Assembly (NCBI GenBank): GCA_963788395.1
Contig: CAWBGV010000028.1
Coordinates: 18,102 to 82,101 of the forward strand
Source of the DNA: Candidatus Doudnabacteria bacterium
Lineage (GTDB): Bacteria > Patescibacteriota > Doudnabacteria > UBA920
Length of the DNA: 64,000 nt
Direction: 5' to 3'
Part shown: piece by piece, positions 1,415 through 56,226 of the stretch
How positions within the stretch are numbered: position 1 is the first letter of the stretch
Layout of the letters: the number at the start of each line of letters is the position of its first letter
The notes under the pieces: generated by a model
What the model saw: only the letters and a program-made list of their open reading frames with translations
The model's database searches: none
What the model was told of the DNA's origin: nothing
Translations under genes and position numbers: made by a program

Positions 1415-1524
1415 GTAACAGTTCACAACTCCAGTTGGTCACAAAGCCAATTTTTTTGCTGCGGAACTCGCCGCAAAAATTGCCTTGTCTTTGTGACTAA
1501 CAAACTGGAGTTGTGAACTGTTGC
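1415..1524. repeat. 110-bp palindromic (hairpin) element, copy 1
   Basis: Arms gtaacagttcacaactccagttggtcacaaagcc... and ...ctttgtgactaacaaactggagttgtgaactgttgc pair along about 50 bp around the loop tgcggaactcgccgca. A homologous inverted copy lies at 35578-35736. Confidence 0.8.
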
Positions 1525-5754: not shown

Positions 5755-5838
5755 AGAAATTAAAATAGTAACCCAACAAATTTTCCCTAAAGGAAAATTG
5801 GCAAACCAACTGCTAGTAATAACTAAGCTGTTCCTTGC

Positions 5839-6199
5839 GGGGCCCCCGATCCGCCCGAGACGGATTGGGGAAAGGGGCAACAATCCGAACGTAATGGAGT
5901 CGCGTCCGACGCGGACGGAATGGAGTGAGGATTGATTATTTCCTTTTCAGGGCCCCCAATTTTCCATCCCTAGAAAAAAATCATAGGGAAAATTGGGGAA
6001 AGGGGCAACAATCCGAACGTAATGGAGTCGCGTCCGACGCGGACGGAATGGAGTGAGGATTGATTATTTCCTTTTCAGGGCCCCCAATTTTCCATCCCTA
6101 GAAAAAAATCATAGGGAAAATTGGGAAAAGGGGCAACAATCCGAACGTAATGGAGTCGCGTCCGACGCGGACGGAATGGAGTGAGGATTGATTGACCCG
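5839..6199 (-). repeat. tRNA-trailer repeat family, 3 tandem units (128-bp period)
   Basis: The unit ...ggggcaacaatccgaacgtaatggagtcgcgtccgacgcggacggaatggagtgaggattgatt... occurs three times. The junction word cagggccccc recurs at 5948 and 6076. The array abuts the CCA end of tRNA-Leu. Confidence 0.9.
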
Positions 6200-8873: not shown

Positions 8874-9962
8874 ATGGCTAAATTTGATAAAAATACGCCC
8901 TATAACCAGTTGCCTCATTTACCTCCAAAAAGGGAACTTGAAACTAAGCAAGTTCTTAAAAAGACCATATCCGCCAATAAAGAGTTGGCTAATATGGCTG
9001 GTTTTTGTAAACAGCTACCTAATGAAGCAATTTTTTACCACTCCGCTTTTTTAATTAAAGAGGCAAAGGATAGCTCGGAAATAGAAAACATCGTAACTAC
9101 AAATGATGAACTATATCAAGCACTTGCTTCTGGTAAAATCACAACAGACCCAAATATAAGAGAAGTTCTGCATTACATAGATGCACTTTGGGAAGGCTTA
9201 AAAGAAATGAAAAATACAAAAGTATTAACTGTCAGGACTTTCGTAAAAATTGTCAATACAATAAAAGAAAATAATCAAGGTATCAGGATTCATCCAGGGA
9301 CTAAAATACAAAATGACAAAACTAAAGAAATTATTTATACACCCCCGGAGGGTAAAGACGTTATTGAGAACAAACTTAGAAACTTAGAAGAGTATATAAA
9401 TAAAGACGATGATGTTGACCCGCTTATAAAGTTAGCAGTTCTTCATTACCAATTTGAAGCCATACACCCATTCTCGGATGGTAATGGGAGAACTGGCAGA
9501 ATAATAAATATACTCTATTTAGTTTTTAGGAATCTCCTAGAGCATCCCATGCTATTTTTGAGCAAATACATCATTAATAATAAAAATGATTATTATACAA
9601 AATTAAGAAATGTAACAGAACATGATAGATGGGAGGATTGGATTTTATATATACTACAAGGAGTTGAAGAAACATCAATATACACAAAGAAAAAAGTGTC
9701 TGAGATTCTTGACCTAATGAGAGCAACCAAAGAAAGAATAAGAAAAGAAGCTCCTGGAATTTATTCTAAAGATTTATTAGAGGTATTGTTTCGGCAACCG
9801 TATATCAAAGTTCGTTTCTTAGAAGAAGCTGGTATTGTAAAGAGATTAACGGCAGGAAAATATCTAAATAAATTAACAACTATGGGGATATTAAAAAAGG
9901 TAAAAGTTGGAAAAGAAAATCTATATGTTAACCTTGAGTTCTACAAAATATTGAAAAAATAA
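8874..9962 (+). CDS. Fic family protein
   Basis: Fic motif HPFSDGNGRTGR, plus a C-terminal winged-helix-like tail. Confidence 0.9.
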   Translation: MAKFDKNTPYNQLPHLPPKRELETKQVLKKTISANKELANMAGFCKQLPNEAIFYHSAFLIKEAKDSSEIENIVTTNDELYQALASGKITTDPNIREVLHYIDALWEGLKEMKNTKVLTVRTFVKIVNTIKENNQGIRIHPGTKIQNDKTKEIIYTPPEGKDVIENKLRNLEEYINKDDDVDPLIKLAVLHYQFEAIHPFSDGNGRTGRIINILYLVFRNLLEHPMLFLSKYIINNKNDYYTKLRNVTEHDRWEDWILYILQGVEETSIYTKKKVSEILDLMRATKERIRKEAPGIYSKDLLEVLFRQPYIKVRFLEEAGIVKRLTAGKYLNKLTTMGILKKVKVGKENLYVNLEFYKILKK

Positions 9963-10059
9963 AACCGCTACTTGCACCAAAGTCAAAATTAGCAAAGCCC
10001 AAGTTAAAGATACCAACTTTTTAGAATATTTATCGCTACTAACATTAAATTTGTTTATT

Positions 10060-10227
10060 TCATTTACTAGCTGCTCTGAGGCTGTGGCGTTTTTTTTCTA
10101 TAGCTCTACGAGTTAGTTCTGCCATAACAAAATTGCTAACTGAACTGTTTATATCCGCATTCTCTAATTTAGCCTCCAGTTCTTCTTGGCTGTATTCTTT
10201 TATTGGTTTTCCGAGACCAAAAGGCAT
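10060..10227 (-). CDS. small hypothetical protein (55 aa)
   Basis: ATG at 10227, MPFGLGKPIKEYSQEELEAKLENADINSS... It is below the ORF-track cutoff and lies downstream of Fic on the opposite strand. Confidence 0.3.
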   Translation of the reverse strand: MPFGLGKPIKEYSQEELEAKLENADINSSVSNFVMAELTRRAIEKKRHSLRAASK

Positions 10228-29935: not shown

Positions 29936-30002
29936 GTTAGGTTTTATATATTATATAGGTAACAAACAAAAGATTCAATCCAAATTGTGTAACTTAACTG
30001 TT

Positions 30003-30611
30003 CCCATCCGGGCCCTAAATTTTCTCGCCGTTTCCAAATGGAAAATTTGGGGTAAGGGGCAACACCCCGAACGTAACGGAGTGGCCGCCGAGTAGGCGGA
30101 CACGGAGTGGAGTGAGGGTTGATTGACTGTATCTTTTGGGGCCCCCAATTTTTCTAGCAAGGAAAATTGGGGAAAGGGGCAACAACCCGAACGAACGGAG
30201 TGGCCGCCGAGTAGGCGGACACGGAGTGGAGTGAGGGTTGATTGACTGTATCTTTTGGGGTCCCCCAATTTTTCTAGCAAGGAAAATTGGGGAAAGGGGC
30301 AACAACCCGAACGTAACGGAGTGGCCGCCGAGTAGGCGGACACGGAGTGGAGTGAGGGTTGATTGACTGTATCTTTTGGGGTCCCCAATTTTTCTAGCAA
30401 GGAAAATTGGGGAAAGGGGCAACAACCCGAACGTAACGGAGTGGCCGCCGAGTAGGCGGACACGGAGTGGAGTGAGGGTTGATTGACTGTATCTTTTGGT
30501 GCTCCCCAATTTTTCTAGCAAGGGAAATTGGGGAAAGGGGCAACAACCCGAACGAAACGGAGTGGCCGCCGAGTAGGCGGACACGGAGTGGAGTGAGGGT
30601 TGATTGACCCG
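30003..30611 (-). repeat. tRNA-trailer repeat family, 5 tandem units (119-121-bp period)
   Basis: The junction word tgtatcttttgg occurs at 30128, 30247, 30368 and 30488. The units are near-identical, and the last abuts the CCA of tRNA-Phe. Confidence 0.95.
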
Positions 30612-30686
30612 TGGTGCCGGGCCCCAGAGTCGAACTGGGCACGCCTGCCTCTTCAGGGCAGCGCTCTACCGATGAGCTAGCCCGGC
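30612..30686 (-). tRNA. tRNA-Phe(GAA)
   Basis: GCCGGGC…GCCCGGC, anticodon loop CTGAAGA, T-loop TTCGACT, encoded CCA. Confidence 0.9.
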
Positions 30687-30742
30687 ACGTCGTCGCACTT
30701 TATTCCGGCCTACGAGAATGAATTAAAACCAGCCTCCATAAA

Positions 30743-30941
30743 GTGTTCCTCTTCCCCAAATTCCTTTTCTCTATGTTTTTTCTTCGCTTCGCTTCGAAAA
30801 AACTAAATGTGAAAAGCAATTCGGGGTCCTGCCAATTTTCCATCCCAAATTCAATTGGGAAAATTGGGGCAAGGGGCAACACCCTGAACGTAACGGAGTC
30901 GCGTCCGACGCGACGGAATGGAGTGAAGGGTGATTGACCCG
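30743..30941 (-). repeat. tRNA-trailer repeat family, composite copy (standard unit + inverted long-loop hairpin module)
   Basis: 30823-30941 is a standard unit abutting the tRNA-Val CCA. 30743-30826 is the reverse complement of 47871-47965 in the 16S insertion. Confidence 0.85.
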
Positions 30942-31018
30942 TGGTGGGCGATAAAGGATTCGAACCTTTGGCCTCCTCGGTGTAAACGAGGCGCTCTAAC
31001 CAACTGAGCTAATCGCCC
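30942..31018 (-). tRNA. tRNA-Val(UAC)
   Basis: GGGCGAT…ATCGCCC, anticodon loop TTTACAC, T-loop TTCGAAT, CCA. Confidence 0.9.
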
Positions 31019-31194
31019 CTACTTACCCAGGAGGCTCCGTCTCTTTTAGAATTCCAGGTGCAAAATCGAATTGCTTAGAAACTATAGCAAAAAACCGGTT
31101 TTTTGACAACCATCAAAGCTCTTCCTTAAACAGCCTTGGATGAAGCTAAAAAAAGCTTTCCCTCATATTTATGAGGTAAAATGGCAAAAAGGGC

Positions 31195-32234: not shown

Positions 32235-32345
32235 CGGGTCAATCAACCCTCACTCTGCTTCGTCCGCCTCGGGCGGACTCCGCTGCGTTCAGGTTGTTGC
32301 CCCTTACCCCAAATTTTCCCTGCTGGAAAAATTTGTGGGCCCCGA
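32235..32345 (+). repeat. tRNA-trailer repeat family, single unit (plus orientation)
   Basis: cgggtcaatcaaccctcactctgcttcg-[tccgcctcgggcgga]-ctccgctgcgttcaggttgttgcccc-ttaccccaaattttcc/ctgct/ggaaaaatttgtggg-ccccgatggg, directly after the CCA. Confidence 0.9.
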
Positions 32346-32378
32346 TGGGAACAGCAAAAGCGGGGCAAAAAGCAATAG

Positions 32379-34161: not shown

Positions 34162-35364
34162 TTATTTTACTTCTTCCACTTTCTCTTCTACAACTTCTTC
34201 TTTTACTTCCGTCGCAGCTTCTGTGGTTGACTTTTTGGGCGGCTCAGTCATGGCTTTCAGTGAGAGGCCCAGCCGGTGTTCGGCCGGTTCAATAGAGATA
34301 ATCTTGAATTCTTTTTCTTCGCCGGGTTTCAGGACCTCCTCGGCGTTTTTAATAGCTTCGTGGGAAAGTTCCATAACGTGGGCCAAACCCTGGATATCTT
34401 TATCTAATTCCACAAACACGCCAAACGGCATAATCTTGGTGACGGTACCTTTGACTACTTGGCCGATTTGGTACTTTTTGACGGCGTCCAGCCATGGATC
34501 ATTTTGGAGCTGCTTCATAGAAAGCGAAACACGGCCTTTATCTATAGAGATAATCTTGGCGCGGACGCGCTGGCCGACTTTGACAATATCGCGCGGATTT
34601 TCAATGCGTTGCCAGGCCAATTCGGAAATGTGGACCAAGCCTTCCAGCTCGCCAAATTTTAAGAATGCGCCAAAGTCTACGACGCCGGTAATGGTGCCTT
34701 CTACTATTTCGCCAATTTTGAGTTGGCCCAGGCGGTTTTCCATTTCCTTTTCGAACACGGCTTTTTCGCTGACGATCAGTTTTTCCTCGGCCGAGTCGGC
34801 GGTAATAATCTGGACATCAAACGGTTGGCCAACGTAGCTTTGCAAAACGGAAAGAATTTTATTCTTGTCGCCGTCTTCCACGCGGGGATAGTGTTCCAGC
34901 GAAAGTTGGGAAACGGGCAAGAAACCCATAACGTTGTTAATCGAGACCATGAGTCCGCCCTTGTTGGCTTCCAAGATTTTGCTGCGGACGATTTCTTTAC
35001 TTTCCATCTTTTCTTTTAAGGTCTGCCAGACGCGTTCCTGGCCGGCTTGGCGCAGGGACAGTTCAACAATACCTTCTTTGTTTTCCGGCTCCACGACCGA
35101 AACGAAAATTTTGTCGCCGGGCTTGAGCGAGTTAAGGGTTGCTTCGTCATCGTAGAGTTCGCGGCCGCGGACTACGCCGATGCCGTAGCCTTCTAAATCT
35201 ACATAGACTTCGTTTTTGCCGACGGAGATTAAAGTCCCTTCGACCATGTCGCCGGTCTTAAGCACTTTAATATCCACGCCGTTCTCTATGAGTTCCGCCA
35301 TGGTCTGCGCCTTTTGCGCGGCGGGAGAAACGGTTTGGACGGTTGTTATTACTTCTTCGGGCAT
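34162..35364 (-). CDS. rpsA: 30S ribosomal protein S1
   Basis: Four consecutive S1 domains (GDMVEGTLISV…, GKIVKGTV-type repeats, VGQRVRAKIISID…). Start taken at MPEEV. Confidence 0.9.
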   Translation of the reverse strand: MPEEVITTVQTVSPAAQKAQTMAELIENGVDIKVLKTGDMVEGTLISVGKNEVYVDLEGYGIGVVRGRELYDDEATLNSLKPGDKIFVSVVEPENKEGIVELSLRQAGQERVWQTLKEKMESKEIVRSKILEANKGGLMVSINNVMGFLPVSQLSLEHYPRVEDGDKNKILSVLQSYVGQPFDVQIITADSAEEKLIVSEKAVFEKEMENRLGQLKIGEIVEGTITGVVDFGAFLKFGELEGLVHISELAWQRIENPRDIVKVGQRVRAKIISIDKGRVSLSMKQLQNDPWLDAVKKYQIGQVVKGTVTKIMPFGVFVELDKDIQGLAHVMELSHEAIKNAEEVLKPGEEKEFKIISIEPAEHRLGLSLKAMTEPPKKSTTEAATEVKEEVVEEKVEEVK

Positions 35365-35577: not shown

Positions 35578-35736
35578 GTAACTGTTCACAGCTCCAATTT
35601 GAGGGTCGCAAAGACAAGGCGATTTTTGCAGCGAGGACTGTTTGAGCCAACTTTATATAAAAATTAATATAGCGGCGAGTTCCGCAGCTAAAAAATCGGC
35701 TTGGCTTTGTGACCATCTGGAGCTATGAACTGTTAC
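35578..35736. repeat. palindromic element, copy 2 (inverted, with central insertion)
   Basis: Its arms are homologous to 1415-1524 in the opposite orientation (…ggctttgtgaccatctggagctatgaactgttac). About 40 extra AT-rich nt sit in the centre. Confidence 0.8.
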
Positions 35737-39238: not shown

Positions 39239-39282
39239 GCTAAAAAATAAATTTTTGAAATGGGAGGATTGGTTTTATTGTT

Positions 39283-39404
39283 CCCATCGGGGGCCCCAAA
39301 TTTTCTCGCAATATCCAAAAGGAAAATTTGGGGAAAGGGGCATTGACCGAACGAAGCGGAGTCCGCCCGAGGCGGACGAAGCGGAGTGAGTAATAATTGA
39401 CCCG
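39283..39404 (-). repeat. tRNA-trailer repeat family, single unit
   Basis: Same architecture as 32235-32345. It abuts the CCA of tRNA-Ile. Confidence 0.9.
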
Positions 39405-45156: not shown

Positions 45157-46329
45157 TTAGCTTTTTATCTTCACAAATTTTCTTTTCCCAACCTGTAAAA
45201 CTATCTCCGCCCCGGCTTCTAGTTGTATATTCTGTTCCGACACCGTCTGCTGATTCATTTTAATGCCTTTTTGATCAAACAATCGACGAGCGTCGGATTT
45301 GCTCGAAGCAAGCCCGGTATCTGTCACTAGTTGAATCACCGAGTACGTCCCCGGCTTCATTTTTTTTACTGCAATTTCTTCGGGTAATTCGCCTTTGCTG
45401 AACTGGGCAATAAAGGCCTGCTTGGCCTCGGCCGCTTTGTTAGCACTATGATATAAGGCGGTTATTTTTTCGGCTAAAATAAGTTTTTGGTCGCGGGGGT
45501 TGTTATTTTGGGAAATAATAGTCTGGATTTCTTCCAGCGGAACGCGTGTGGCCAAGAATAAAAAATTTTTTTATTAAGCCGTCATTAATAGACATTACTT
45601 TACCGAACATGTCGTTAGGCTCATCGGTAATATTAATCACGTTTCCCCAGCTGGATGACATTTTTCGGCCATCAGTCCCTTCCATCAGCACTGTCATAAG
45701 TATGTCTTGCGGAGCCTGTTGGTAGGCCGGCTGGATGGTTCTGCCGGCCAATAAATTAAAGCGCTGGTCGGTACCGCCTAATTCTACGTCGGCTTTAACC
45801 GCAACGGAATCGTAGCCTTGCATAATCGGATAGAGCAGTTCCCGAAGCGAAACCCGCTTACCGGCTTTTAACCGGAGGGCGATGTTTTCGCGGGCTTCAA
45901 ATTCGGGTGCAGCCCAAATAAATTAGCCATCCGGCCGATCTCGATAAAGCCTAATTTTTTAAGCCATTCTGAATTATAGTGGGTCTCGGTCTTTTTTTTA
46001 TCAAGTATTCTAAAAGCCTGCTCAAAGTACGTTTTGAGATTTTTTTTAATTTCCGCTTCACTGAGCATGGGACGTTCGGCGTCTTTATCGGAAGTGTCGC
46101 CAATCAGCCCGGTAAAATCTCCTACTATAAAGATAACCTTATGACCGAGTTCCTGGAACTGCCGCAGTTTCCACAAAACTACTGCCCGACCAATATGGAT
46201 ATTGGGGCTGGTGGGGTCTATACCCAGCTTTACTCTTAATTTTTTCTTGCCATTAAGCAATTGCCGCAAGTGGTCTTTTTCTATGACTTCATCCACGCCG
46301 CGGGTAAGGAGTTCGTCTATGGGGTTCAT
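45157..46329 (-). CDS. tyrS: tyrosine--tRNA ligase, two apparent frameshifts
   Basis: HIGR (HIGH motif), GGTDQRFN, KMSSS (KMSKS), C-terminal S4-like domain. Pieces: 45868-46329, 45503-45823 and 45157-45555. The shifts lie near 45913-45918 and 45548-45572. Confidence 0.9.
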
Positions 46330-46876
46330 ATGATTATATAATATCAGTTTTTTATGAACCCTTCCAACCGATCCACTTGACAACTCTTCCTAAACCCTTT
46401 AATATAACTAAGGATTTAGAAATTAAATCTTGGAGATTAAAAAAGGCATAACACCGCTAGTCCAATTTTACTCTTATGTAAGCCAAATCTGCTAACGCAG
46501 AAGGTTGATTATAAGGGGTCCGCCAATAGGTGGAAAACTAGGACACTTCAAGTAAGAAACTTGGGTGTTTTTTTAGCCCCTAATTTCCAACACTGCTCTT
46601 TAACAGCTGAATAGTGATTAGAATTTTGTACAAAACCATCGCGTCTCAATTATTTAAACCAATTGAGATGTGAAAACCCGAAAATTTCCGTCCCGGAAAT
46701 CTCGGGGTAAAGTTACGTCAATTTACTAGAGTTCAATGATAATTTATAAGCTTTAATAATTGAGCTTTTCCCAAATCAATTATGCCAGATTTGTATCATT
46801 TTGGTACGGATCGAACCGGATACTATAGATTCCGTTTGGTTAATTCCAAACACCAAGAATTTATTTATCTTTTATA

Positions 46877-46920
<44 letters not shown>

Positions 46921-47623
46921 GACATGCAAGTCGAGTGGGTTTAGACCCACGGCGAACGGGTGAGTAATACCTAGGAATGTCCTTTAAGTTGAGCATATCC
47001 CATCGAAAGATGGTGCAATACTCAATGTGAACAGTGCAAGCACTGTAGATCCCGTTACTGGAATTTACAACGCTTGCGTTTTTAAAGTCGCAAGACGCTT
47101 AAAGCGCAGCCTGGGCACCATCAGCTAGTTGGTAAGGTAATGGCTTACCAAGGCTATGACGGTTAGGGGCCCCGAGAGGGGAAACCCCCACACTGGAACT
47201 GCGACACGGTCCAGACTCCTACGGGAGGCAGCAGTTTGGAATTTTGGACAATGGGCGAAAGCCTGATCCAGCGACGCCGCGTGGACGATGAAGGCCTTCG
47301 GGTCGTAAAGTCCTTTTGCTCGGGAACAATTTTTGAGCGTACCGAGAGAATAAGAGGTTGCTAACTCTGTAAGCCCACACAGGTGGGTTGGTGCAGAGAG
47401 GGTGTAGTAATACATCCTAAGAAAATTTCGCTATATGCTGGAACACCTTGTAAGTTCTGTAGTACTTCCAAAAGAAGTGACAATCTACAGGAAACCCAAA
47501 AAAACGCACCGCTGCGTATAAGGGTTGCAAGACAATCAGCAGGCAATCCTGACGTAAATTTTTGGAAAAAAGAAAACGGAGACAGCCAGTAGCTATCCCC
47601 GTCATGTATTTGGTTTTTGGTTA

Positions 47624-47695
47624 TCATCGGTCAGCGGTTCTATACAAGATGCCGACTACCCCTACGATTACAGTAATTACGATAATCAACCACAT
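47624..47695 (-). CDS. 23-aa hydrophobic peptide encoded antisense within the 16S insertion
   Basis: aaggagg, 7 nt, ATG, MWLIIVITVIVGVVGILYRTADR*. Its stop overlaps (ATGA) the start of the 88-aa ORF 47361-47627. Confidence 0.4.
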   Translation of the reverse strand: MWLIIVITVIVGVVGILYRTADR

Positions 47696-47718
47696 ATTTC
47701 ATCCTCCTTGAACCGTTT

Positions 47719-47747
47719 AAGATAACACAAGTGGATGATCAAGTCAA
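47719..47747 (-). promoter_or_regulatory. sigma70-type promoter for the antisense peptide cassette
   Basis: On the minus strand: TTGACT, 17 nt, TATCTT, about 20 nt upstream of the SD. Confidence 0.45.
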
Positions 47748-48391
47748 TACAGTTGGCTTCCAAAAATTTGCGTCAGGCGAGCCTCAGAGACTACACGCGA
47801 AACTCCCACGTTAAGGTGGGATGATGATATAGTCCACGCTTCATGGCGACATGAAGACCTGGTCCCGAAAGGGGCCCCCAAATTGCTTTTTACATTTTAG
47901 TTTTTTCGACCGAGAGGGAGAAAAAAACATAGAGAAAAGGAATTTGGGGAAGAGGAGCGCTTCACGGAGACGGCACAAAATAAATTTACAATTTATTTTG
48001 TGGAGTCGGAGTGAAGGGCGACGAGCCAGCAGCAGCGGTAATACAGAGACCTCAAGCGTTATCCGGAATCATTGGGCGTAAAGCGTACCGATAGGTGGTT
48101 TACAAAGTCAGAAGTGAAATCCAAAGCTTAACTTTGGGACTGTCTTTTGAAACTTGTAAACTAGAGGGGCAAAGAGGAAGCTGGAACGAACGGTGTAGTA
48201 GTGAAATGCGTTGATATCGTTCGGAACACCAATAGCGTAGGCAGGCTTCTGGGTGCCACCTGACACTGCTAGGACGAAAGCGTGGGGAGCGAATGGGATT
48301 AGATACCCCAGTAGTCCACGCTGTAAACGATGATGATTAGGTGCTAGAGAGTATCGACCCTCTTTAGTACCATAGCTAACGCGTTAAATCA

Positions 48392-48442
<51 letters not shown>

Positions 48443-48446
48443 ACCT

Positions 48447-48480
<34 letters not shown>

Positions 48481-49260
48481 GTAAGCGAGGAACCTTACCA
48501 AGTCTTGACATGTACCTGCATACTCTGGAAACAGAGTAGCCTTCGAGGGTGGTACACAGGTGATGCACGGTTGTCGTCAGCTCGTGCCGTGAGGTGTTCA
48601 CTTAAGTGTGAAAACGAGCGCAACTCCTATCATAAGTTACAAGTGTCTTATGAAACCGCCGGCGTTTAAGCCGGAGGAAGGCGGGAATGACGTCAAATCA
48701 GCGTGTCTCTTACGACTTGGGCGACACACGTGCTACAATGGGGAGAACAAAGGGACGCCAAGGAGCAATCCGGAGCAAATCCTATCAATACTCCCCCCAG
48801 TTCGGATTGAGGGCTGCAACTCGCCCTCATGAAGCCGGAATCGCTAGTAACCGTGGATCAGCCTCGCTACGGTGAATACGTTCTCAGGTTTTGTACACAC
48901 CGCCCGTCAAGCCATGGAAGCGGGAAGCGGCTAAAGTACCTTTATGGTCCTAGGCCGAAGCTCGTAACTGGGGCTAAGTCGTAACAAGGCATCGGTAGCG
49001 GAAGCTGTCGATGGATCACCTCCTTTCTAAGGAACTTTATGCATCCTTTTCCCTTTTCGAAGGGGAATGTTGGTGCACATTCCATTGGTCGTCGTTAATT
49101 TTTTCGAAAATTAGCGCACTTCTTGAAACTTCAAAGAACGACGTAAACTGGTGGTTTTGTAAGGTAATTCTACCGTATTTAGCAATAAATACGGCCTGAG
49201 CGCCAAAATGCTCGGGGTCACTATTTAGCCGTTAAAGGCTTAACACGAAATTGCAAAGAA

Positions 49261-49290: not shown

Positions 49291-49365
49291 ATGTTCTATG
49301 CAAAAACGTCACTTGAATCAACCGCTAAAGTAGGAACTTTAGCGCCAATCTCCAATGATTTGACA

Positions 49366-50262
49366 ATGAGCCAGCTCATTCCGCAGTTCCTGAAGTACGG
49401 CCAGTTTGAATTAATGTTCTCACAAAACACGCTTTTAAAATACGACGAGTGCTTAAAGTGGGTAGTCAGGGACATCGGCGACGTGAAGGTCACCGAATTA
49501 AACCTATTCCATTTCACTGAATTAAAGCAAATAATAACGAACCGTGGTTGCGGCACCAGCCGTGTTGCTTCCATGGTGTTTTCCATGAAAAGTTTCCTAA
49601 AGTATTGCAAGGACTATCTGGAGTTGCCGGTGATGGATTACAAAAAAATCCGTAGCCCAAGGTTTAAGCGCCGGGAAGTGATTTACTTAACTAATGAAGA
49701 AATTGAGCGATTTGTCAGCGCCATTAAAATAAAGAATGGCCCTCGCGCTACTAAGCCGGTGCGTATGGACGGCCTAAGATTTAGGGTCTTGGTAGAAGTC
49801 CTTCTTGGTACCGGCATGCGCATCTCTGAAGCTTTGTCACTAAACCGCGATATGGTCGATTTTGAAAAGGCTGAGGCCAAGATTATCGGCAAAGGCAGCA
49901 AGGAACGCACCGTGTTTTTTAGCAAGCGGTCGCTGGATTGGGTTAAACGTTATCTGTCCCTACGCACAGACAATGAACCCGCATTGTTTCTCACCCAGCA
50001 GAATACGCGCCTGTCCAAGATAGATGTCCCCGGCTTCTTTAAGCGCTACAGCAAGAAGGCCGGTATAACCAAGAAACTGACGCCGCACGTGCTCAGGCAT
50101 ACCTGCGCCACAAACCTGTTGTTTAACGGCTGTCCCATAAATAACGTTCAAGTAATTTTAGGCCATGACCGCTTGGAAACCACTTGCCGTTATTATCTCG
50201 GCGTTGACAAAACTAAGGCCAAGGAAGCGCACGGCAATTATTTAAATTATCAATTGTCGTAA
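49366..50262 (+). CDS. tyrosine recombinase (XerC/D-like integrase)
   Basis: SAM-like N-domain, then ARMDGLRFRVLVEVLLGTGMRISE, HVLRHTCAT, LGHDRLETTCRYY. The ORF opens at 49291, directly after the terminator, so the internal ATG (MSQLIPQF) is preferred. Confidence 0.8.
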   Translation: MSQLIPQFLKYGQFELMFSQNTLLKYDECLKWVVRDIGDVKVTELNLFHFTELKQIITNRGCGTSRVASMVFSMKSFLKYCKDYLELPVMDYKKIRSPRFKRREVIYLTNEEIERFVSAIKIKNGPRATKPVRMDGLRFRVLVEVLLGTGMRISEALSLNRDMVDFEKAEAKIIGKGSKERTVFFSKRSLDWVKRYLSLRTDNEPALFLTQQNTRLSKIDVPGFFKRYSKKAGITKKLTPHVLRHTCATNLLFNGCPINNVQVILGHDRLETTCRYYLGVDKTKAKEAHGNYLNYQLS

Positions 50263-51038
50263 TTCATGAACTTTGTGTGTGCCGCTTTCAGCGCCCGTTT
50301 ATCGGTTCCCAGATAATACTGGGCCGTGGTGCGAATGTCCGAGTGCCCCAAAAGTTCCTGAATATACCGGATGTCGCAGCCATTTTCCAACATGATCGTC
50401 GCGGCAGTGTGCCGCAGCGTATGCGGCGTGACTTTTTTCTTGATCCCGGCCTTGGCGGCGTATCTTCGAAATTCCTTGCCCAAATCGTAACGAGCAAGCC
50501 GCTTGGCTTTGCCGAACGTCACGAACAAGGCCGGGTTGTCATCGGTTCGGCTTTGCAGGTACTTGTTTATCCATTCCAAAGCGCGGTCGTTGAAGAAGAC
50601 CACTAATTCCTTATTGCCCTTAACGATGATCGTCGCCTCTTTTGTCTGCAAATTTATACTGTCGCGGTTAAGGTTTAAAGTTTCCGAAATGCGGCCGCCG
50701 GTGTCTAAGAGCACTTCCATTAAGGTTCTTGCTCTTAAGCCGTATTTAGTATTAACGTCAATGCTGCCTAACAGCTGCCGGACCTCGTCTTTGGTGAGGA
50801 AGACAACTTGGCGTTTTGGGATTTTCATGGGCTTGATCTCCTTTGGATCTAAAGTCGGGAGTTTATGAACATCCCGACAATAAGTTAAAAATTTTCTTAA
50901 TGAATAGACGAATGAATTGACTCGGGAAGGGCCGCAGCCGCGCCCCGTTGCGCGGGAGATCCGCGCCAGGGTTTGTTTTTTTATTTTAGTGACGTGCTCA
51001 AGCCTTAAATCAGACGGGTTTTGAACTTCGGGAAGCAT
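50250..51038 (-). CDS. tyrosine recombinase (XerC/D-like integrase)
   Basis: GLRARTLMEVLLDTGGRISE, HTLRHTAAT, LGHSDIRTTAQYY. It converges on the previous gene, and their 3' ends overlap by 13 nt. Confidence 0.85.
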   Translation of the reverse strand: MLPEVQNPSDLRLEHVTKIKKQTLARISRATGRGCGPSRVNSFVYSLRKFLTYCRDVHKLPTLDPKEIKPMKIPKRQVVFLTKDEVRQLLGSIDVNTKYGLRARTLMEVLLDTGGRISETLNLNRDSINLQTKEATIIVKGNKELVVFFNDRALEWINKYLQSRTDDNPALFVTFGKAKRLARYDLGKEFRRYAAKAGIKKKVTPHTLRHTAATIMLENGCDIRYIQELLGHSDIRTTAQYYLGTDKRALKAAHTKFMNYDN

Positions 51039-51220
51039 TTTAGCGATCCAGTATAGCGCCTCCTTATATTTATAAATGGTCTGTTTTGCGAGGCTAAGAT
51101 TCGTAAGTGGCGTGGTCGATGAATAATGGGATCAGGTATTCAAAATTTAGAGCTGGTTGCTGGCTGATATAGTTTTCTGTCGTTAATTCCAAAACCGCAA
51201 CAGGCTGCTGTTGAAAAGGG

Positions 51221-51436
51221 CTAAGTCCGAGATTTTGGATGACTGGATCCATAATTAAATTTTATTAGATTTTGAATTGCCTGATTTTTATAGAAATTCT
51301 TTTTATATTTGTTGATTATGATATCTCCAAATCCGGCCATCGTCTTGCACGGTTTATTTGTATCTATAAAATCGTGATTCTCTTTCGAGATCCGGAGGCG
51401 TTCTTTGAATCTGCTGTTTTTATAATCTTTTTTCAT
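51221..51436 (-). CDS. hypothetical protein
   Basis: 71-aa basic ORF. Confidence 0.35.
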   Translation of the reverse strand: MKKDYKNSRFKERLRISKENHDFIDTNKPCKTMAGFGDIIINKYKKNFYKNQAIQNLIKFNYGSSHPKSRT

Positions 51437-51806
51437 AATTATATAAGTGCCCTTATACCCCCACCACCCAAGCCGTTTCCTTCCTTAGCAGGTGTCTTGA
51501 GTTCTTGGTTCAAGGGTTTACCACTAGGTATGCTATGTTGAGTTGTCTTGGAAGCAGGGAGAAGAAAAGGTAAAATATAACCGGCGATTTTTTCTTTTCC
51601 CTTGGCGAAGTTTACCGCTCCGCTCGACTGCTGTCTCCAGCTGGAGACTTCATAAATTCTGCTGAAGTTGAGGTATCCGTATTGGGTTACATGCCACCTG
51701 CCATTTTACGTCCGCAGGCTATCTCGTAGAGATTGTGGCGACGCGAGTTAAATTTCTTACTCGCCTTCAGCACGCAAGTCGTAGCGTACCGAAAGCGAAG
51801 GAAAAA

Positions 51807-52115
51807 TCAAAATAAGACCGGCACTTTTTGGATTTGCGGCACAGGTATAGGCTGGAAAACAAATCGTTTCTCTGCCGGGCTATTTACCTCAGTTTCCTGT
51901 CCGCCACGATGGCCGTTCAGCTTTTCCATGTACGCAAGAACCTGTCTTTTTGTTGAGCCGTCATAGTCATCCCTGTCAACAAGCCTGTTAAAGGCACGGT
52001 GGAGACGCTGGCGGCAGAAACCTTGCTCACTGATAGCCGCTGCGAAAATTGTCAGGGTGCTACCATTTGGGATTCGCTTTGAGGTTATTTCAAAGCGTCG
52101 TTCTATCGATCTCAT
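51807..52115 (-). CDS. hypothetical protein
   Basis: 102-aa ORF. Confidence 0.4.
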   Translation of the reverse strand: MRSIERRFEITSKRIPNGSTLTIFAAAISEQGFCRQRLHRAFNRLVDRDDYDGSTKRQVLAYMEKLNGHRGGQETEVNSPAEKRFVFQPIPVPQIQKVPVLF

Positions 52116-52518
52116 GAAAAATTGATTAATTATAAAAACCCGTAAAAGTTATGCGGTTCCAGGTCAATGGCTCCGACCAACTTTTACGGGCTTATATATG
52201 ACCTGGAAATTAAAGCCAAATTTTTGTTTTGGTTTAAATTAGAAAAATAAAAAACTCACATTGCGCAATGTGAGTTCGGTCATAATTAAAAAAGCATCCA
52301 TGAAAATCACGCAAAGTGTTAATTTGCTCAGCCAATGTTCGATTGGGCCTATTAGAACAAGCTATTAGCCTGCCAATTGGTTATCGTTATAACCAATGCC
52401 CACTTCCATGATGCATTTATTGAAAATTTAAAGAGCGAGTAAAATAATAGTAATCCTAAAATGATTTTATGTCAAGCGAATGTTAAAAACGATTTATAAA
52501 TCCATGAAATAAAACCCG

Positions 52519-52770
52519 CTAATGAATCTTTTTGGATAAGTTCTTATAAGCTTCCCAATAGGTTTTTGCGTCTGCCCGGAGTTCTTCGTTGTTGTTATAT
52601 TTTTTTACCAGGTCATCAATTTTGGGGTCATAATCAAAACAAAATTCTGTTCTTTTGTTTTTATTTTTGCCCACTAATTTTAGATGATAACCTAAAGCAC
52701 ATAGTGCCGCTGCAATGCCTAGATGAGTGGTGTTATATATTTTTCTATTAGACTGCTTTGCTATCTCCAT
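52519..52770 (-). CDS. DUF5659-like small protein
   Basis: THLGIAAALCALGYHLKLV…EFCFDYDP…, a pattern I associate with DUF5659 (from memory). Confidence 0.5.
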   Translation of the reverse strand: MEIAKQSNRKIYNTTHLGIAAALCALGYHLKLVGKNKNKRTEFCFDYDPKIDDLVKKYNNNEELRADAKTYWEAYKNLSKKIH

Positions 52771-53299
52771 ATTGTTAATTCACCACGAGTTAAGATAATG
52801 GTGGGTCATACGCAAATTATGGTTCTAACCGTATAGCTTCGCTACCCGGAAAAAGAAAAACTTAACATCGGTAACACCTCGGACTAAAGCTCTAAAGCCT
52901 TTAAGTAATATACACATTATCCGCATCGCTGTTGCTTTCAATTAAGTTAAACCAGTCAAATAATCCTTGAGGGAAAATTATCTCAAAAACTTTTTTGTCA
53001 ATTTGCATATAACGGGATTGTTAATGATGGCAATCCTATTATACCGATTTAAGATTTAAGCGTCACCCACTATTGCGTATGAGCCATAATGGTCTTTATC
53101 GCCTATATCCTCTATGCGGCTCCAACCTTTTACTAACCAGCAAAAATTAACTGTGTCCTGCTTGGTAATTGTTTGACAGTACCGGCTACTTAGGAAGATT
53201 GCCATTTTCGATTTTAAGTCTTGTTTTCAACGGGCATATTTAGAAATTAAGGAGTCATATACATATCAGTTTGCTCCCATACAGAATACATATTTATAA

Positions 53300-54530
53300 G
53301 TATTTTAGGAAATTTTTAGAAGTGAAGCAAAACGGTTTTTGTTACTGGATAGTTTCCATAGATATGCCAGTATAGTTATTTTTTGCTCCATCGTCCATAG
53401 GGGTATTGTAACATAGGGCTGTTTGAATTTTGTTTGTCTGGCTGTGCGAACGCCAATACACAGGGGTAAAATGGCTTTTGGTGTGTTTGGTGTTTGACAA
53501 ACAGCGGTCATTATCTAAAGTTTCATCGCACTGTTTCACTGGCTAAAATTGACCACATAATTTCTATGATAACCTTCTTTATGCCGGCAACTTCTTTTAA
53601 CCATTTTTACCCTGAGTAATTTTTGTGTAAATGTGTCCCGTTAACGCACCAAATCAGGGGTATATTTGATGTTAAACGGCGGCTGTGTAATCTTTTGCGT
53701 ATTTTGGGAAAAAGGTTTTGGCTGAAAATACGTGCATAATTTTTGCATAGGCCGATTAAAATATCCCTAATAAATTGCCTATTATATTGCTTTAAGGGGT
53801 CGGTACATATTCTTTGCATATTTTGGTAAGGTAAATTGCTACAGAAAATTTGTTAGTCTATACTGTACTCAATCTTTTTAAAGGGTGTTCAATTTTTGTT
53901 CAATTCCCCGCATAACACCCTTATTAAAAGGCTATTTTGATGCCCTACACAGCTGCTGTGCATTTTTCTGTGCAATTTTATAGGATGCGCATTTTTTGCG
54001 CACCCCCTTAAAATAAGCGAATAAATGGCTGATTTTAATACTTTACTTAGGCCCTCCGCACTTTTTTGCGCATTTTGAAGGTTGGGCACGTTTTGGGCAC
54101 TCGCCCTAAAATAGCCTTCTTAATAGGCTAATAATCTTCATTTTTTATAAGATTAGCATTTTTTGGTCATTCCGAGCCGAAAGTAACCTTATGGGTAAAT
54201 TTTGGGTAATTGTGTCACGTTCACCCGCCAAATCAGGGGCATATGTGATCATTAAACACCGTTGGGTAATCTTTTGGGTAAACTGGTAATGGTTTCACTG
54301 GCTTTAATTGCCCGAATAATTTTTATGGTATATCAGTATAGTTCTTCTTTGTTGTCGTTGATATGCTGATTTTAGACCCTTGGGGCATTTTTGGGGCATT
54401 GTGTCCGGAACGCCCGTCAAAACAGGGGTATATTGGGGTCTAAAAACCGTTTGGGGAATCTTTTGGGGAATTTGTTAATATTTCACTTGCTTTAATTACC
54501 CGAATAATTTTTATGGCAAACCTATCGGGT
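53300..54530. repeat. degenerate ~190-bp tandem array with helically phased word-T4-word dyads (iteron-like)
   Basis: The scaffold word cac(t/g)gcttt/aaaattg… occurs at 53537, 54296 and 54484. Dyads: gggtaaattttgggtaa (54193), gggtaatcttttgggtaa (54264), ggggcatttttggggca (54382), ggggaatcttttggggaa (54453), gggcacgttttgggcac (54084). Confidence 0.75.
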
Positions 54531-54594
54531 TTTGGCACCGATTAAGTCAGTCGGAATAACAGTATATCCGGCAACCGTGGCTGGCTCAATTTAC

Positions 54595-55371
54595 CTATAT
54601 CCTCTTCATCTGCTGGATAATCGTGTTAGCCAGCTCACGCTTGTCAATCAGGTATTCGTCCCACTTGTTGGACTCTTTTTTCTTGCGGCCAGCTACAAAG
54701 CCCAGCAGGTTGCCCTCGCTTAAACGATTGGCTTTTTTAAGAAAATCAGGAGCAGGGACGAACCATAGGTAGTCCCACAGGTCGCCACGCTCGGTATCAA
54801 AAAAACAAAAGATTATGCCCATGGAAAAACTGTCCACGACGTTGTGGGTTTTCACCGTGGCCGTGAAGGCTTCACCGGAGTCGTCCCCAAACCGGCTCTT
54901 CACTTGTAAGTACATTATTTTGGGCACGCCTTTTTCTTTGACGATAATGTCGATACCCTCGTCGTCCGAGATTGGCCGGTAGCAGGCCAGGCATCTTTCC
55001 CCGTAAAGCGTGATCAGTTCCGCGACCCGGGCTTCGGTAATATCGCCTTTTTGCCGTTCGGATATACCATCCGCGATTTTGAATATTTTTTGTTCCTTTA
55101 CCTCGGCCGCTACCGTAGCGGGGGTTTCCACAAACTGTAGGTTAAGGGCATAGGTGGAAGGACCTGTTTTAATAAACCGTGATTTGTCTTTTTTGGAATT
55201 GACGTCCACTAGGATGGTGGCGTTCATGGTCGCTTCTGGCGTCTTACCGGCGGTTTTTAGCCAACCGCGTTTAAGGGCGATGTCCGTAATCTCTTTGCTG
55301 TGCAAAGACTTGTTTGATTCACGCAGGATTTCGTATGCGATGTCTTTAAATGAGTTCATATGATGGGTCAT
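54595..55371 (-). CDS. HARE-HTH domain + PD-(D/E)xK-like restriction-endonuclease-fold protein
   Basis: N-terminus FKDIAYEILRESNKSLHSKEITDIALKRGWLKTAGKTPEATMNATI (HARE-HTH). C-terminus …DDEGIDIIVKEKG…YLQVKSR (D…(D/E)xK). Confidence 0.6.
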   Translation of the reverse strand: MTHHMNSFKDIAYEILRESNKSLHSKEITDIALKRGWLKTAGKTPEATMNATILVDVNSKKDKSRFIKTGPSTYALNLQFVETPATVAAEVKEQKIFKIADGISERQKGDITEARVAELITLYGERCLACYRPISDDEGIDIIVKEKGVPKIMYLQVKSRFGDDSGEAFTATVKTHNVVDSFSMGIIFCFFDTERGDLWDYLWFVPAPDFLKKANRLSEGNLLGFVAGRKKKESNKWDEYLIDKRELANTIIQQMKRI

Positions 55372-55476: not shown

Positions 55477-56226
55477 TTATAGTCCAACCGCGTTAGCTCC
55501 GTACTCTGCTTGTTCTTGTGTGAATTTATCATATTCCAACTGCGCAATTAAACTGCCGCGTGAAAAAGCTGAATAGCTCATGTAGTCTTTGGCCTTTGCA
55601 GCTGCCTCCGCATCCCAGTTAGCACCGGAATTATCTGCACCATAAGTCGCATCAGCCTGTGAAAATTGGTCGTACTCCAATTGAGCAACCAATCCATCAT
55701 GAGAAAATGCTGTGTAATTTAAATAATCTTTTGCTTTTGCAACAGCATTTTTTTGACTAACTGTTTCATTTGATACTGGTGAAGTATTTTGATTGTCTGT
55801 TTGTGGAGCTTGCGTTGGCTGCGGGGTTGCAACAGGCGCAGGTGTAGTAGCCGCTGGCTGTTTTGGTTGAGGGTTGGCAGGAATAATTGGTGCGGCTTTA
55901 GTTGTTTTTGGTGAGGTCGCTGGAGCTACCACTACAGCAGAAGCCGGGCTGGTTGTGTTTGTGACCGAGGGAATAACCGTGTTTTGATTTGCCACAGCGG
56001 CCTGCTGTTGAGGTTGGGTGGTAGCTTCATTGCTAACCGTGTTACTTTTCGGACCTGTAGCGCCGATCAAAAATAGAAATACAGTCATGGCAATCCCAAA
56101 AGTCACGCTCGTATTTATTCTATTTGCTTTGCCTCTAAAAACTTTATTAAACCACACAGGTTTAATTAAACCCATTATTAGTCCCACTACACAGAGAAGG
56201 AATAATAAAACAAAAAAACCGGACAT
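55477..56226 (-). CDS. Ltp-family surface lipoprotein-like protein
   Basis: N-terminal TM segments, a Pro/Thr/Ala/Gln-rich linker, and two Ltp-type repeats (AKAKDYLNYTAFSHDGLVAQLEYDQFSQADATYGA and AKAKDYMSYSAFSRGSLIAQLEYDKFTQEQAEYGA). Confidence 0.7.
   Translation of the reverse strand: MSGFFVLLFLLCVVGLIMGLIKPVWFNKVFRGKANRINTSVTFGIAMTVFLFLIGATGPKSNTVSNEATTQPQQQAAVANQNTVIPSVTNTTSPASAVVVAPATSPKTTKAAPIIPANPQPKQPAATTPAPVATPQPTQAPQTDNQNTSPVSNETVSQKNAVAKAKDYLNYTAFSHDGLVAQLEYDQFSQADATYGADNSGANWDAEAAAKAKDYMSYSAFSRGSLIAQLEYDKFTQEQAEYGANAVGL

Follow-up and report, generated by a model that had tools for sequence, protein, structure and literature searches.

Small structured interspersed repeats of bacteria, such as ERIC/IRU, REP/BIME, Correia and Rickettsia palindromic elements, are co-transcribed with their neighbor genes. 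In IStrons, a group I intron is fused at its 3' end to an IS200/IS605 module, and tRNA operons give rise to linked small RNAs, e.g., 3' external transcribed spacer RNAs and RNAs whose 3' ends are defined by RNase P. In TIGR arrays, box C/D motifs enclose variable dual spacers of 8-12 nucleotides (nt), and a gene for the Nop-domain protein Tas lies next to the array (PMC12045711). For bacteria of the candidate phyla radiation (CPR), insertions have been reported in 48% of the 16S rRNA genes (PMC11270868), and group I introns have been reported in tRNA genes of Patescibacteria (PMC13011429). Here, we analyze a stretch of 64,000 nt from Candidatus Doudnabacteria (contig CAWBGV010000028.1, positions 18,102 to 82,101), in the following termed the window, in which a sequence-only reading had drawn attention to positions 30743-30941. 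This segment is most of the spacer between the genes for tRNA-Val and tRNA-Phe, and it very probably represents two whole units that belong to two subtypes of a single structured family, each of them tied to a tRNA end.

Like ERIC-, REP- and Correia-type repeats, the element is 100-170 nt long, multi-copy, non-coding and patchily distributed among related genomes, forms stable stem-loops, and occupies intergenic transcribed sites where it may build up local arrays. Unlike these repeats, the unit is more than a simple imperfect palindrome: it is built of two domains, in which conserved motifs are asymmetric and internal loops are rich in purines. Neither terminal inverted repeats nor target duplications were observed, and the units are placed with nucleotide exactness and in fixed polarity at tRNA and rRNA ends. 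With tRNA-punctuated small RNAs the element shares its position at RNase P and 3'-processing sites, and since the units lie exactly at these sites, processing would release them with defined ends. It differs in being multi-copy and patchy, and in that processing would set A-type and B-type units (see below) free in opposite polarity. Tandem stem-loop units in CPR-type organisms and tandem G.A motifs are features in common with TIGR arrays (PMC12045711); in contrast to these, the units measure 120-170 nt, are tied to tRNA ends and come with neither 8-12-nt dual spacers nor a Tas/Nop-domain gene. With respect to the host, the GyrA protein of the window is 100% identical to a database protein from a 100.6-kb contig and shares 76-86% identity with numerous proteins bearing the name Doudnabacteria or Patescibacteria, indicating a member of the Patescibacteria, and its 16S gene carries a group I intron-like insertion as do other CPR rRNA genes. 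Intron-bearing tRNA genes, as reported for Patescibacteria (PMC13011429), also occur in loci related to the window. A term search of the main text of PMC11270868 yields no mention of tRNA, and the abstracts of PMC11270868 and PMC13011429 mention neither tRNA leaders or trailers nor a repeat that tRNA flanks have in common with the 3' part of a 16S insertion.

The tRNA-Val/tRNA-Phe spacer

Between tRNA-Val(tac) (30942-31018, minus strand; ARAGORN; Rfam, 75.8 bits) and tRNA-Phe(gaa) (30612-30686, minus strand; ARAGORN; Rfam, 56.6 bits) lies a spacer of 255 nt (30687-30941) which, by its sequence, consists of two units and no other content. In the following, copies that adjoin a CCA end in antisense orientation are referred to as A-type, and sense copies that end at a 5' boundary as B-type; related loci from other sequences are denoted by L numbers. 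The A-type unit occupies 30823-30941 on the plus strand; its final letters, ...ATTGACCCG, are followed immediately by the TGG that complements the tRNA-Val CCA. The covariance model R1, which was built from 13 A units, matches it over its full length (30810-30941, model positions 1-138, 121.7 bits), and its minimum-free-energy fold is a P2 hairpin of its own (at about 30832-30868) plus a rod. The sequence-only reading had described 30823-30941 as a standard unit adjoining the tRNA-Val CCA, and our analysis confirms this. The B-type unit lies on the minus strand (30687-30826), with its 3' end adjoining nucleotide +1 of tRNA-Phe. Its P2 stem is formed by 30816-30826 and 30754-30764 around a loop at 30765-30815, and it carries its own GGAAUAAAGUGCGACG 3' module, which reaches up to tRNA-Phe nucleotide +1; this module, GGAATAAAGTGCGACGACGT, corresponds to 30687-30706, and the copy terminates ...GACGACGT at 30687. 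The P4 region has decayed to the extent that no P4 is recognizable. Model R1 does not match this copy, and its link to the family runs solely through the full-length alignment with the copy in the 16S gene; its layout is shared with units at tRNA-Lys in L008 and tRNA-Asp in L007. The two units of the spacer are arranged head to head and overlap by four bases (30823-30826), which read GGGG in one unit and CCCC in the other. With the B unit on its 5' side, tRNA-Phe is flanked on its 3' side by five tandem A units.

The second observation of the sequence-only reading, that 30743-30826 is the reverse complement of a part of the 16S insertion, is likewise borne out. A repeat search pairs 30734-30807 with 47896-47969 in inverted orientation (74 nt, 84% complementary, ungapped), and when the reverse complement of 30680-30835 is aligned globally, with gaps, to 47850-48030, the score is 135, compared to 31 for the same strand and 5.2 +/- 2.9 (maximum 16) for 200 shuffles. 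As had been stated, the match includes the loop and not the palindromic stem alone. This loop is asymmetric and 51 nt long, and in the long-loop comparison the inverted orientation gives identity in 45 of 53 columns versus 33 of 54 for the same strand, with a mean of 26 and a maximum of 34 identical columns in 1000 shuffles; as the loop similarity depends on orientation, it is not limited to the palindromic stem. The similarity to the 16S copy extends 56 nt past the start noted earlier, to 30687, and includes AAGAGGAACACTTTATGGAG ... GGAATAAAGTGCGACGACGT. In total, the tRNA-Phe B copy matches the 16S copy at 115 of 140 positions and is colinear with it throughout, comprising the P2 hairpin with a loop of 51-52 nt, the junction AAGAGGA, the P3 strand (CACTTTAT at tRNA-Phe, CGCTTCAC in the 16S gene), GGAG, the hairpin region and the 3' module (GGAATAAAGTGCGACG and GGAGTGAAGGGCGACG, respectively). 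The end of the 16S copy is corrected to 48024 (...GGGCGACGA); G48025 is G517 of the 16S rRNA.

These results bear on the model put forward in the sequence-only reading, according to which the family is made up of separable modules and recombination or transposition has flipped the long-loop hairpin with respect to the adjacent GGAGTGA(A/G)GG module, within one unit. The hairpin at 30743-30826 is inverted with respect to the neighboring GGAGTGAAGG at 30915-30924, and the P2 domain is absent in L044 and enlarged in the B copies, as separable modules might lead one to expect. However, GGAGTGAAGG is part of the tRNA-Val unit, which is complete by itself, already has a P2 and scores over its full length, and the hairpin of 30754-30826 has its cognate 3' module GGAATAAAGTGCGACGACGT on the other side, together with its own junction and P3 strands, in the canonical order and orientation and colinear with the 16S copy over 140 nt. 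Since the similarity continues through the 3' module at 30687-30706, the segment is a whole second unit on the opposite strand rather than a flipped hairpin, and whole B units are found in the equivalent place at L008 tRNA-Lys and L007 tRNA-Asp. We thus regard an inversion of modules as very improbable. The element does occur both ways on the chromosome, as had been claimed for the hairpin, but it is never inverted with respect to its own GGAGTGA-type module. The family is modular in the sense that P2 is enlarged by 51-52 nt in the two B copies of the window and missing altogether in the L044/L045 copy, and that P4 is freely variable; no inverted module was seen. Shuffling at the DNA level had been preferred over simple duplication of a spacer, and the pattern is indeed not one of simple duplication; copies at distant loci are 79-91% identical, and units are lacking at the examined tRNA loci of related contigs. 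The module inversion that was part of the argument is contradicted. Target-site duplications, for which a search at module edges had been suggested, are visible at neither unit nor module edges, and the same is true for terminal inverted repeats.

Conserved fold and transcribed strand

Each unit comprises a P2 hairpin, a conserved UUGGGG-NAA-GG junction and a long rod. For the 13 A units, RNAalifold predicts the P2 hairpin CCCCAAAUUUU...AAAAUUUGGGG, the conserved junction NAA-GGGGCA and the rod, in which P3 is followed by tandem GA/GA, an invariant AC/GU, a 3x3 loop (GNA/GGA), two covarying AU/GC pairs, a second 3x3 loop (GGA/GGA) and the apical hairpin P4, which is freely variable. In the 17-sequence model alignment, on which the statistics are based, 94.3% of cells are paired versus 74.5% in shuffles, and compensatory changes are present in 25 of the 33 pairs. 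None of 500 shuffles reaches any of the observed pairing measures, and controls in which the partner was slid are paired to 31-55%. Folding of single sequences yields the same architecture in 15 of 15 units, and the fold energy of the 16S copy (-69.7 kcal/mol) is far below that of shuffles (-37.2 +/- 4.0).

The folded strand is suggested to be the one whose loops are rich in purines. By fold energy, the sense strand exceeds its complement in stability in all 15 units, which are not independent of each other; G.U pairs outnumber A.C mismatches by 18 to 8 on the assigned strand, and the conserved internal loops are purine-rich on this strand only. As the copies are related, this evidence is suggestive rather than decisive. 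A consensus scan predicts a sigma-70-like promoter (TTGTCA-17-TATAGT) upstream of tRNA-Val (31081-31109, minus strand), which would transcribe tRNA-Val, the A unit in antisense as the trailer of this tRNA, the B unit in sense, tRNA-Phe and the five-unit array. Promoter-like sites were found on the tRNA strand only, namely the one at 31109-31081 for the tRNA-Val/tRNA-Phe operon and another at 29978-29950 for tRNA-Gly, and none was detected by the scan on the plus strand upstream of A units; the tRNA-Cys unit, moreover, is wedged in at 22 nt from the next tRNA. On these predictions, A units would therefore be transcribed antisense to the folded strand and B units in sense. At tRNA-Lys in L008, the B unit, as read by eye, seemingly forms the whole leader between a promoter-like sequence and the tRNA +1 position. 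A role as intrinsic terminator was rejected: no terminator-like site is present on the tRNA strand within units, and the three matches on the plus strand are GGGGnCCCC palindromes, at a number expected from shuffles (3 versus 2.8). The tRNA-Cys unit is located between two tRNAs that point the same way, and the tRNA-Ile unit is followed by a terminator distinct from it.

Placement of the units at stable RNA genes

At least 13 copies reside within the 64 kb of the window, at five of its seven tRNA genes (ARAGORN), the remaining two having no unit. Three tandem A units (5826-6199, plus strand, period 128 nt, interior copies 100% identical) adjoin the CCA of tRNA-Leu(gag), and the five tandem A units at tRNA-Phe (29996-30611, plus strand, period 119-121 nt, 92-100% identity) adjoin its CCA; both arrays were identified by repeat search, nhmmer and the covariance model. 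In the tRNA-Phe array, the terminal CCCG is retained only by the tRNA-proximal copy. Single A units, identified by covariance model and sequence, adjoin the CCA of tRNA-Cys in the spacer to tRNA-Leu(taa) (32235-32356, minus strand, 111.6 bits) and the CCA of tRNA-Ile(tat), between this tRNA and the gyrA/tRNA terminator (39276-39404, plus strand, 111.9 bits). Pairwise identities within the window amount to 92-100% within tandem arrays, compared to the 79-91% between distant loci; P4 variants are common to the Leu and Val copies and to the Cys and Ile copies. R1 recovers the listed A copies at 87-122 bits, with three interior array copies not being among the matches listed.

Beyond the window, a pattern scan of genome contigs returned a single real match in L005 (Ca. 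Doudnabacteria) and four chance matches, and a scan of metagenomes returned four real loci (L007, L008, L010 and L011, with two A copies in L008) and seven chance matches; further retrieval added L044/L045. Three scans of IMG/VR with A-type and B-type motifs gave chance matches only, so the family is not viral. Ten of the eleven A loci begin 0 nt after a CCA, which belongs to a recognizable tRNA in eight cases and to a CCA-ended sequence that was not recognized in two; the latter are L010 (...CCACCA) and L005 (...CTACCA), where neither ARAGORN nor Rfam recognizes the neighboring sequence. The exception is the A unit at tRNA-Arg in L008, which is separated from the CCA by 20 nt. In L011 (about 60-164) and L044 (about 9950-10154), the neighbor of the A unit is a tRNA-Met with a long insertion in the anticodon region that was missed by ARAGORN; these insertions are consistent with the tRNA group I introns of Patescibacteria (PMC13011429). 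In L005 (4165-4660), a small ORF (open reading frame) with a GIY-YIG-like N-terminus, as judged by eye, starts about 4 nt from the 5' end of the unit on the opposite strand, and a tRNA 3'-half-like fragment directly follows tRNA-Glu.

Four B copies were found, i.e., in the 16S gene, at tRNA-Phe of the window, at L008 tRNA-Lys and at L007 tRNA-Asp, and all three tRNA-linked ones end at tRNA +1. At L008 tRNA-Lys, an A unit on the 3' side is combined with a B unit on the 5' side, exactly as at tRNA-Phe of the window. A single rule covers both subtypes: the folded strand points with its 3' end to the stable-RNA gene. R1, although built from A units only, matches three B copies at model positions 1-138 with E values of 3e-7 to 9e-7 (window 47858-48023, 35.4 bits, E 2.7e-7; L007 3866-4009, 35.3 bits; L008 1069-1213, 33.5 bits), and as these are found over their full length, A and B units belong to one family. 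Neither strand of the unit has a match in Rfam 15; a scan of the window at gathering thresholds hits only tRNAs, 16S rRNA, the group I intron and LOOT, and E-value scans up to E 10 of 29940-30945 and 47300-48060 give only noise over the units. Two ORFs of 162 and 189 amino acids (aa) that read through the five-unit tRNA-Phe array (29975-30584, minus strand) are spurious, the 189-aa one having no homologues among 5.8 billion proteins; such array ORFs represent an annotation hazard for CPR genomes.

The unit within the 16S insertion

The 16S gene (46870-49026; Rfam) harbors a group I intron core at site 516/517 (47371-47856, plus strand). Rfam family RF00028 matches 47361-47856 with 55.6 bits (gathering score 50) at model positions 1-253, including the P3-P9 core. 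P1 is formed by CUCUGU(A)/(U)GCAGAG with a U.G pair at U47370, the 5' splice site being placed after U516, and GCCAGC (48025-48030) can pair with GUUGGU just 5' of the guide sequence to form a P10 of 6 bp with two wobbles. The last 168 nt of the insertion are the B unit (47857-48024, plus strand), a paralogue of the tRNA-Phe B unit identified by covariance model, fold energy and sequence. The Rfam core ends with G47856 exactly at the start of the B unit, which itself ends ...GACGA with A48024 before G517 (48025). Hence, the base before G517 is an A, and the G that is aligned to the last RF00028 model position, G47856, is located 168 nt upstream. The 3' splice may occur at G47856, which would leave 168 nt in the 530-loop region to be removed by other means, or it may occur at the end of the B unit, then without the canonical terminal G. 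Two tyrosine-recombinase genes, convergent and overlapping at their 3' ends, are located directly downstream of the 16S gene (49291-51038), and no 23S gene follows it within the window.

An extra structured module between the group I catalytic core and the downstream 16S exon is shared with IStrons. Unlike in IStrons, the module comprises 168 nt with neither tnpA/tnpB nor a remnant ORF, IS605-type end hairpins and a target motif are lacking, the nucleotide before exon 2 is an A instead of a G, and members of the same family also exist outside introns at tRNA ends. A derivative of IStrons or IS200/IS605 was rejected as an identity: no ORF of >= 120 aa lies within 47371-48024, Pfam identifies no Y1 transposase or OrfB among about 50 ORFs of the window, P2 and P4 are unrelated in sequence, and the distal flanks share no motif (..TTTTG, ..TTATTG, ..CTTAA, ..CTAAG and ..AAGAC up to the unit boundary).

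Distribution in related loci and turnover of sites

In five related Doudnabacteria loci (GyrA 84-86% identical), tRNA-Cys, -Leu, -Ile, -Val and -Gly are present without a unit detectable by the covariance model; specifically, the unit is absent at the orthologous tRNA-Cys and tRNA-Ile of L017, L018 and L020, at tRNA-Cys of L021 and at tRNA-Val of L018. A search of the relatives' tRNA-Cys trailers with filters off found weak partial matches resembling the apical rod and flush with the CCA in two of them (E 0.065 and 0.89). Among the loci related to L007, six of the eleven retrieved lack the family. At the orthologous tRNA-Met of these loci, the occupant varies. Here, L007 and L011 carry an A unit with wholly different P3/P4 helices within conserved flanks, and L044/L045 carry an A unit without P2 (10155-10269, minus strand, 42.6 bits; GGGGTAAGGGGCATTGTCC...GGACAATTGACCCG followed by TGG), so P2 is dispensable for membership in the family. 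At the same site, L040, L041, L048 and L049 have an unrelated long hairpin in place of the unit; in L040 (10420-10784) and L048 (9546-9751) the tRNA-Met trailer continues from the CCA with TAAACCAGTCGC...GCGACTGGTTTATG and a second hairpin, representing a separate type of element. L007 has a B unit ahead of tRNA-Asp, which the syntenic L011 lacks. In a survey of 36 tRNAs (window, L005, L007, L008, L011, L017, L018, L020, L021, L040, L044 and L048), a helix starts at +1 to +3 after the CCA in 22, many of these helices being terminators, and eight have a helix within 2 nt on the leader side. Structured trailers flush with the CCA thus look like a clade-wide habit.

Further identities considered and other features of the window

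Several other identities were considered and rejected. A miniature inverted-repeat transposable element does not fit, as the unit ends CTGTTCCCATCGGGG... and ...ATTGACCCG are not inverted repeats and no flank is duplicated at five loci of the window. A TIGR array does not fit copies of 92-100% identity without variable segments, and Pfam finds no Nop-domain match in the approximately 50 window ORFs; likewise, neither a partner gene nor spacers are present as for an omega-RNA or bridge-RNA scaffold. Self-cleaving ribozymes of the HDV, hatchet and twister types give no signal in Rfam, and the units lack a P1 strand complementary to the sequence after the CCA. The tandem G.A is not preceded by a 3-nt bulge as in a k-turn or box C/D motif, the R'/R'' consensus of integron attC sites is lacking, and leader and trailer around tRNA-Phe or tRNA-Lys are not complementary to each other.

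Elsewhere in the window, a LOOT RNA (RF03000; 56277-56397, minus strand; 88.9 bits, gathering score 46.4) is located just upstream of a lipoprotein-like ORF (55477-56226). A region of 3.5 kb (51038-54595) is devoid of ORFs of >= 120 aa, and at 53533-54518 direct repeats of about 100-190 nt occur in two to three copies (families D7, D10 and D11). An element of 110-160 nt is common to the upstream regions of infB and rpsA (1415-1522, plus strand, and 35580-35736, read on the minus strand; I4, I12 and I14), with the same orientation relative to each gene, and may be a shared leader or a second repeat family; a related 29-nt motif (D17) is found at 34963-34991 and in the group I intron (47752-47780). 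infB reads as two ORFs (1573-2184 and 2214-3500), between which a portion of the GTPase domain is missing, and tyrS likewise reads as two (45868-46383 and 45157-45555), a relative having an intact TyrRS of 388 aa. Frameshifts, intervening sequences or assembly errors could account for both.

Discussion

We favor, at about an even chance, the explanation that the units are a selfish, non-autonomous repeat that is tolerated just outside mature RNA ends. Copies would move between loci by insertion or gene conversion and expand locally by tandem duplication, and they would persist only directly outside mature tRNA or rRNA ends, where they are co-transcribed from host promoters and may be discarded during maturation, by RNase P at the junction of B unit and tRNA and by 3'-end processing at the junction of the CCA and the following A unit; the 16S copy would be removed by splicing or processing. 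The conserved fold and motifs might then reflect binding by the propagation machinery, as RNA or as single-stranded DNA, rather than a function for the host. We base this on the at least 13 copies in 64 kb, the near-identical arrays, the 79-91% identity of distant copies, the absence from relatives, the turnover at tRNA-Met and the decayed P4. Several points weigh against it. Among the approximately 50 window ORFs, which by Pfam mostly encode housekeeping proteins along with a resolvase, an rve integrase and the two tyrosine recombinases, there is no transposase, reverse transcriptase, TnpB, IS110 or Nop-domain gene; no gene recurs beside the units in the other loci, and neither a target-site duplication nor a terminal inverted repeat is visible. 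The nearest relatives, at about 86% GyrA identity, provide no empty site close enough to define the boundaries of an insertion. Since helices flush with the CCA are common in the 36 tRNAs and include plain terminators, flush placement could reflect a requirement of processing instead of the mechanism of insertion. The unit kept at an orthologous site in L007, L011 and L044 and the weak apical-rod-like relics in the tRNA-Cys trailers of relatives fit a conserved function as well, and the strand assignment is based on modest evidence, i.e., 18 G.U versus 8 A.C, 15 of 15 non-independent energies and purine-rich loops.

A conserved function is the explanation that competes most directly, although we consider it rather doubtful. 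In bacteria whose RNase repertoire is reduced, the units might be functional cis-acting leaders or trailers that attract a protein, or that define, protect or time the cuts at the tRNA 5' end, the CCA end or 16S 516/517; alternatively, tRNA processing might release them as small RNAs the ends of which are exact. In accordance with this, the junctions are exact at mature ends, covariation is strong and the loop motifs are kept across taxa, CCA-flush helices are general in the clade (22/36 tRNAs), the unit is retained at the orthologous tRNA-Met, the units are certainly transcribed within tRNA operons, judging from predicted promoters, and the L008 B unit, by eye, seems to be a whole leader from a promoter-like sequence to +1. 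However, A and B units would be transcribed in opposite polarity, so that one RNA function cannot serve both, and the transcribed strand of A units has pyrimidine loops and A.C mismatches. Most tRNAs of the relatives and two of seven in the window do without a unit, and near-identical arrays of three to five copies, truncated interior copies and a decayed copy are unexpected for a processing signal.

The exactness of the junctions might also be explained by retro-copying, which we regard as improbable. In this case, a small structured RNA corresponding to the folded sense strand would be reverse-transcribed from its exact 3' end, and the cDNA would recombine into the gene. Priming from the tRNA CCA-3'OH would yield the A-type arrangement of tRNA-CCA followed by an antisense unit, and if synthesis reached the 5' end of a tRNA or 16S exon 2 and there switched templates to the unit's 3' end, the B-type arrangement of a sense unit followed by the RNA would result. 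Such a process would account for antisense A units and sense B units with the unit 3' end at the junction in both, and every junction is a natural RNA terminus (tRNA 3' CCA, tRNA +1, G517 beside the intron, and the last G of the intron core, 47856); many different tRNAs are used, and head-to-tail arrays exist. But no reverse transcriptase was found in the window or the other loci, interior array junctions lack the 3'-terminal CCCG expected from a full-length template, the A unit of L008 tRNA-Arg lies 20 nt from the CCA, a sense-expressed master copy of the A type was not seen, and CCA-flush hairpins are general in these genomes anyway. The least credible explanation, to which we attach hardly any weight, is a guide-RNA scaffold similar to the omega-RNA of IStrons, the IS110 bridge RNA or TIGR RNAs, with the adjacent tRNA or rRNA as guide or target. 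The 16S layout of intron core, extra structured module and exon 2 is IStron-like, variable host sequence follows the unit 3' end, and the tandem GA and GUGA/CUGA-like motifs loosely recall box C/D. Against this stand the lack, both in the window and next to the units, of any gene for TnpB, IscB, IS110 or a Nop-domain protein, the lack of variable spacers in the units with their near-identical array copies, a distal flank without a conserved target-adjacent motif, A units without a promoter-like site for sense transcription, and the missing Rfam match.

What the units mean for these bacteria depends on which of the explanations applies. If they are selfish, they would constitute a bacterial repeat with nucleotide-exact, polar targeting of the ends of stable-RNA genes, including a 16S intron/exon boundary, and the mechanism of spread could be an RNA-end-based or structure-specific insertion activity. 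If they are functional, they would represent a system of structured leaders and trailers, specific to this lineage, that serves the maturation of tRNA and rRNA in CPR bacteria with reduced genomes, and if they are retro-copies, a SINE-like retroelement by which RNA termini are marked in the genomes of CPR bacteria. The 16S copy, in addition, poses the question of how a 168-nt element at 516/517 leaves the rRNA. Either way, the family is a well-supported structured element that is new to Rfam.

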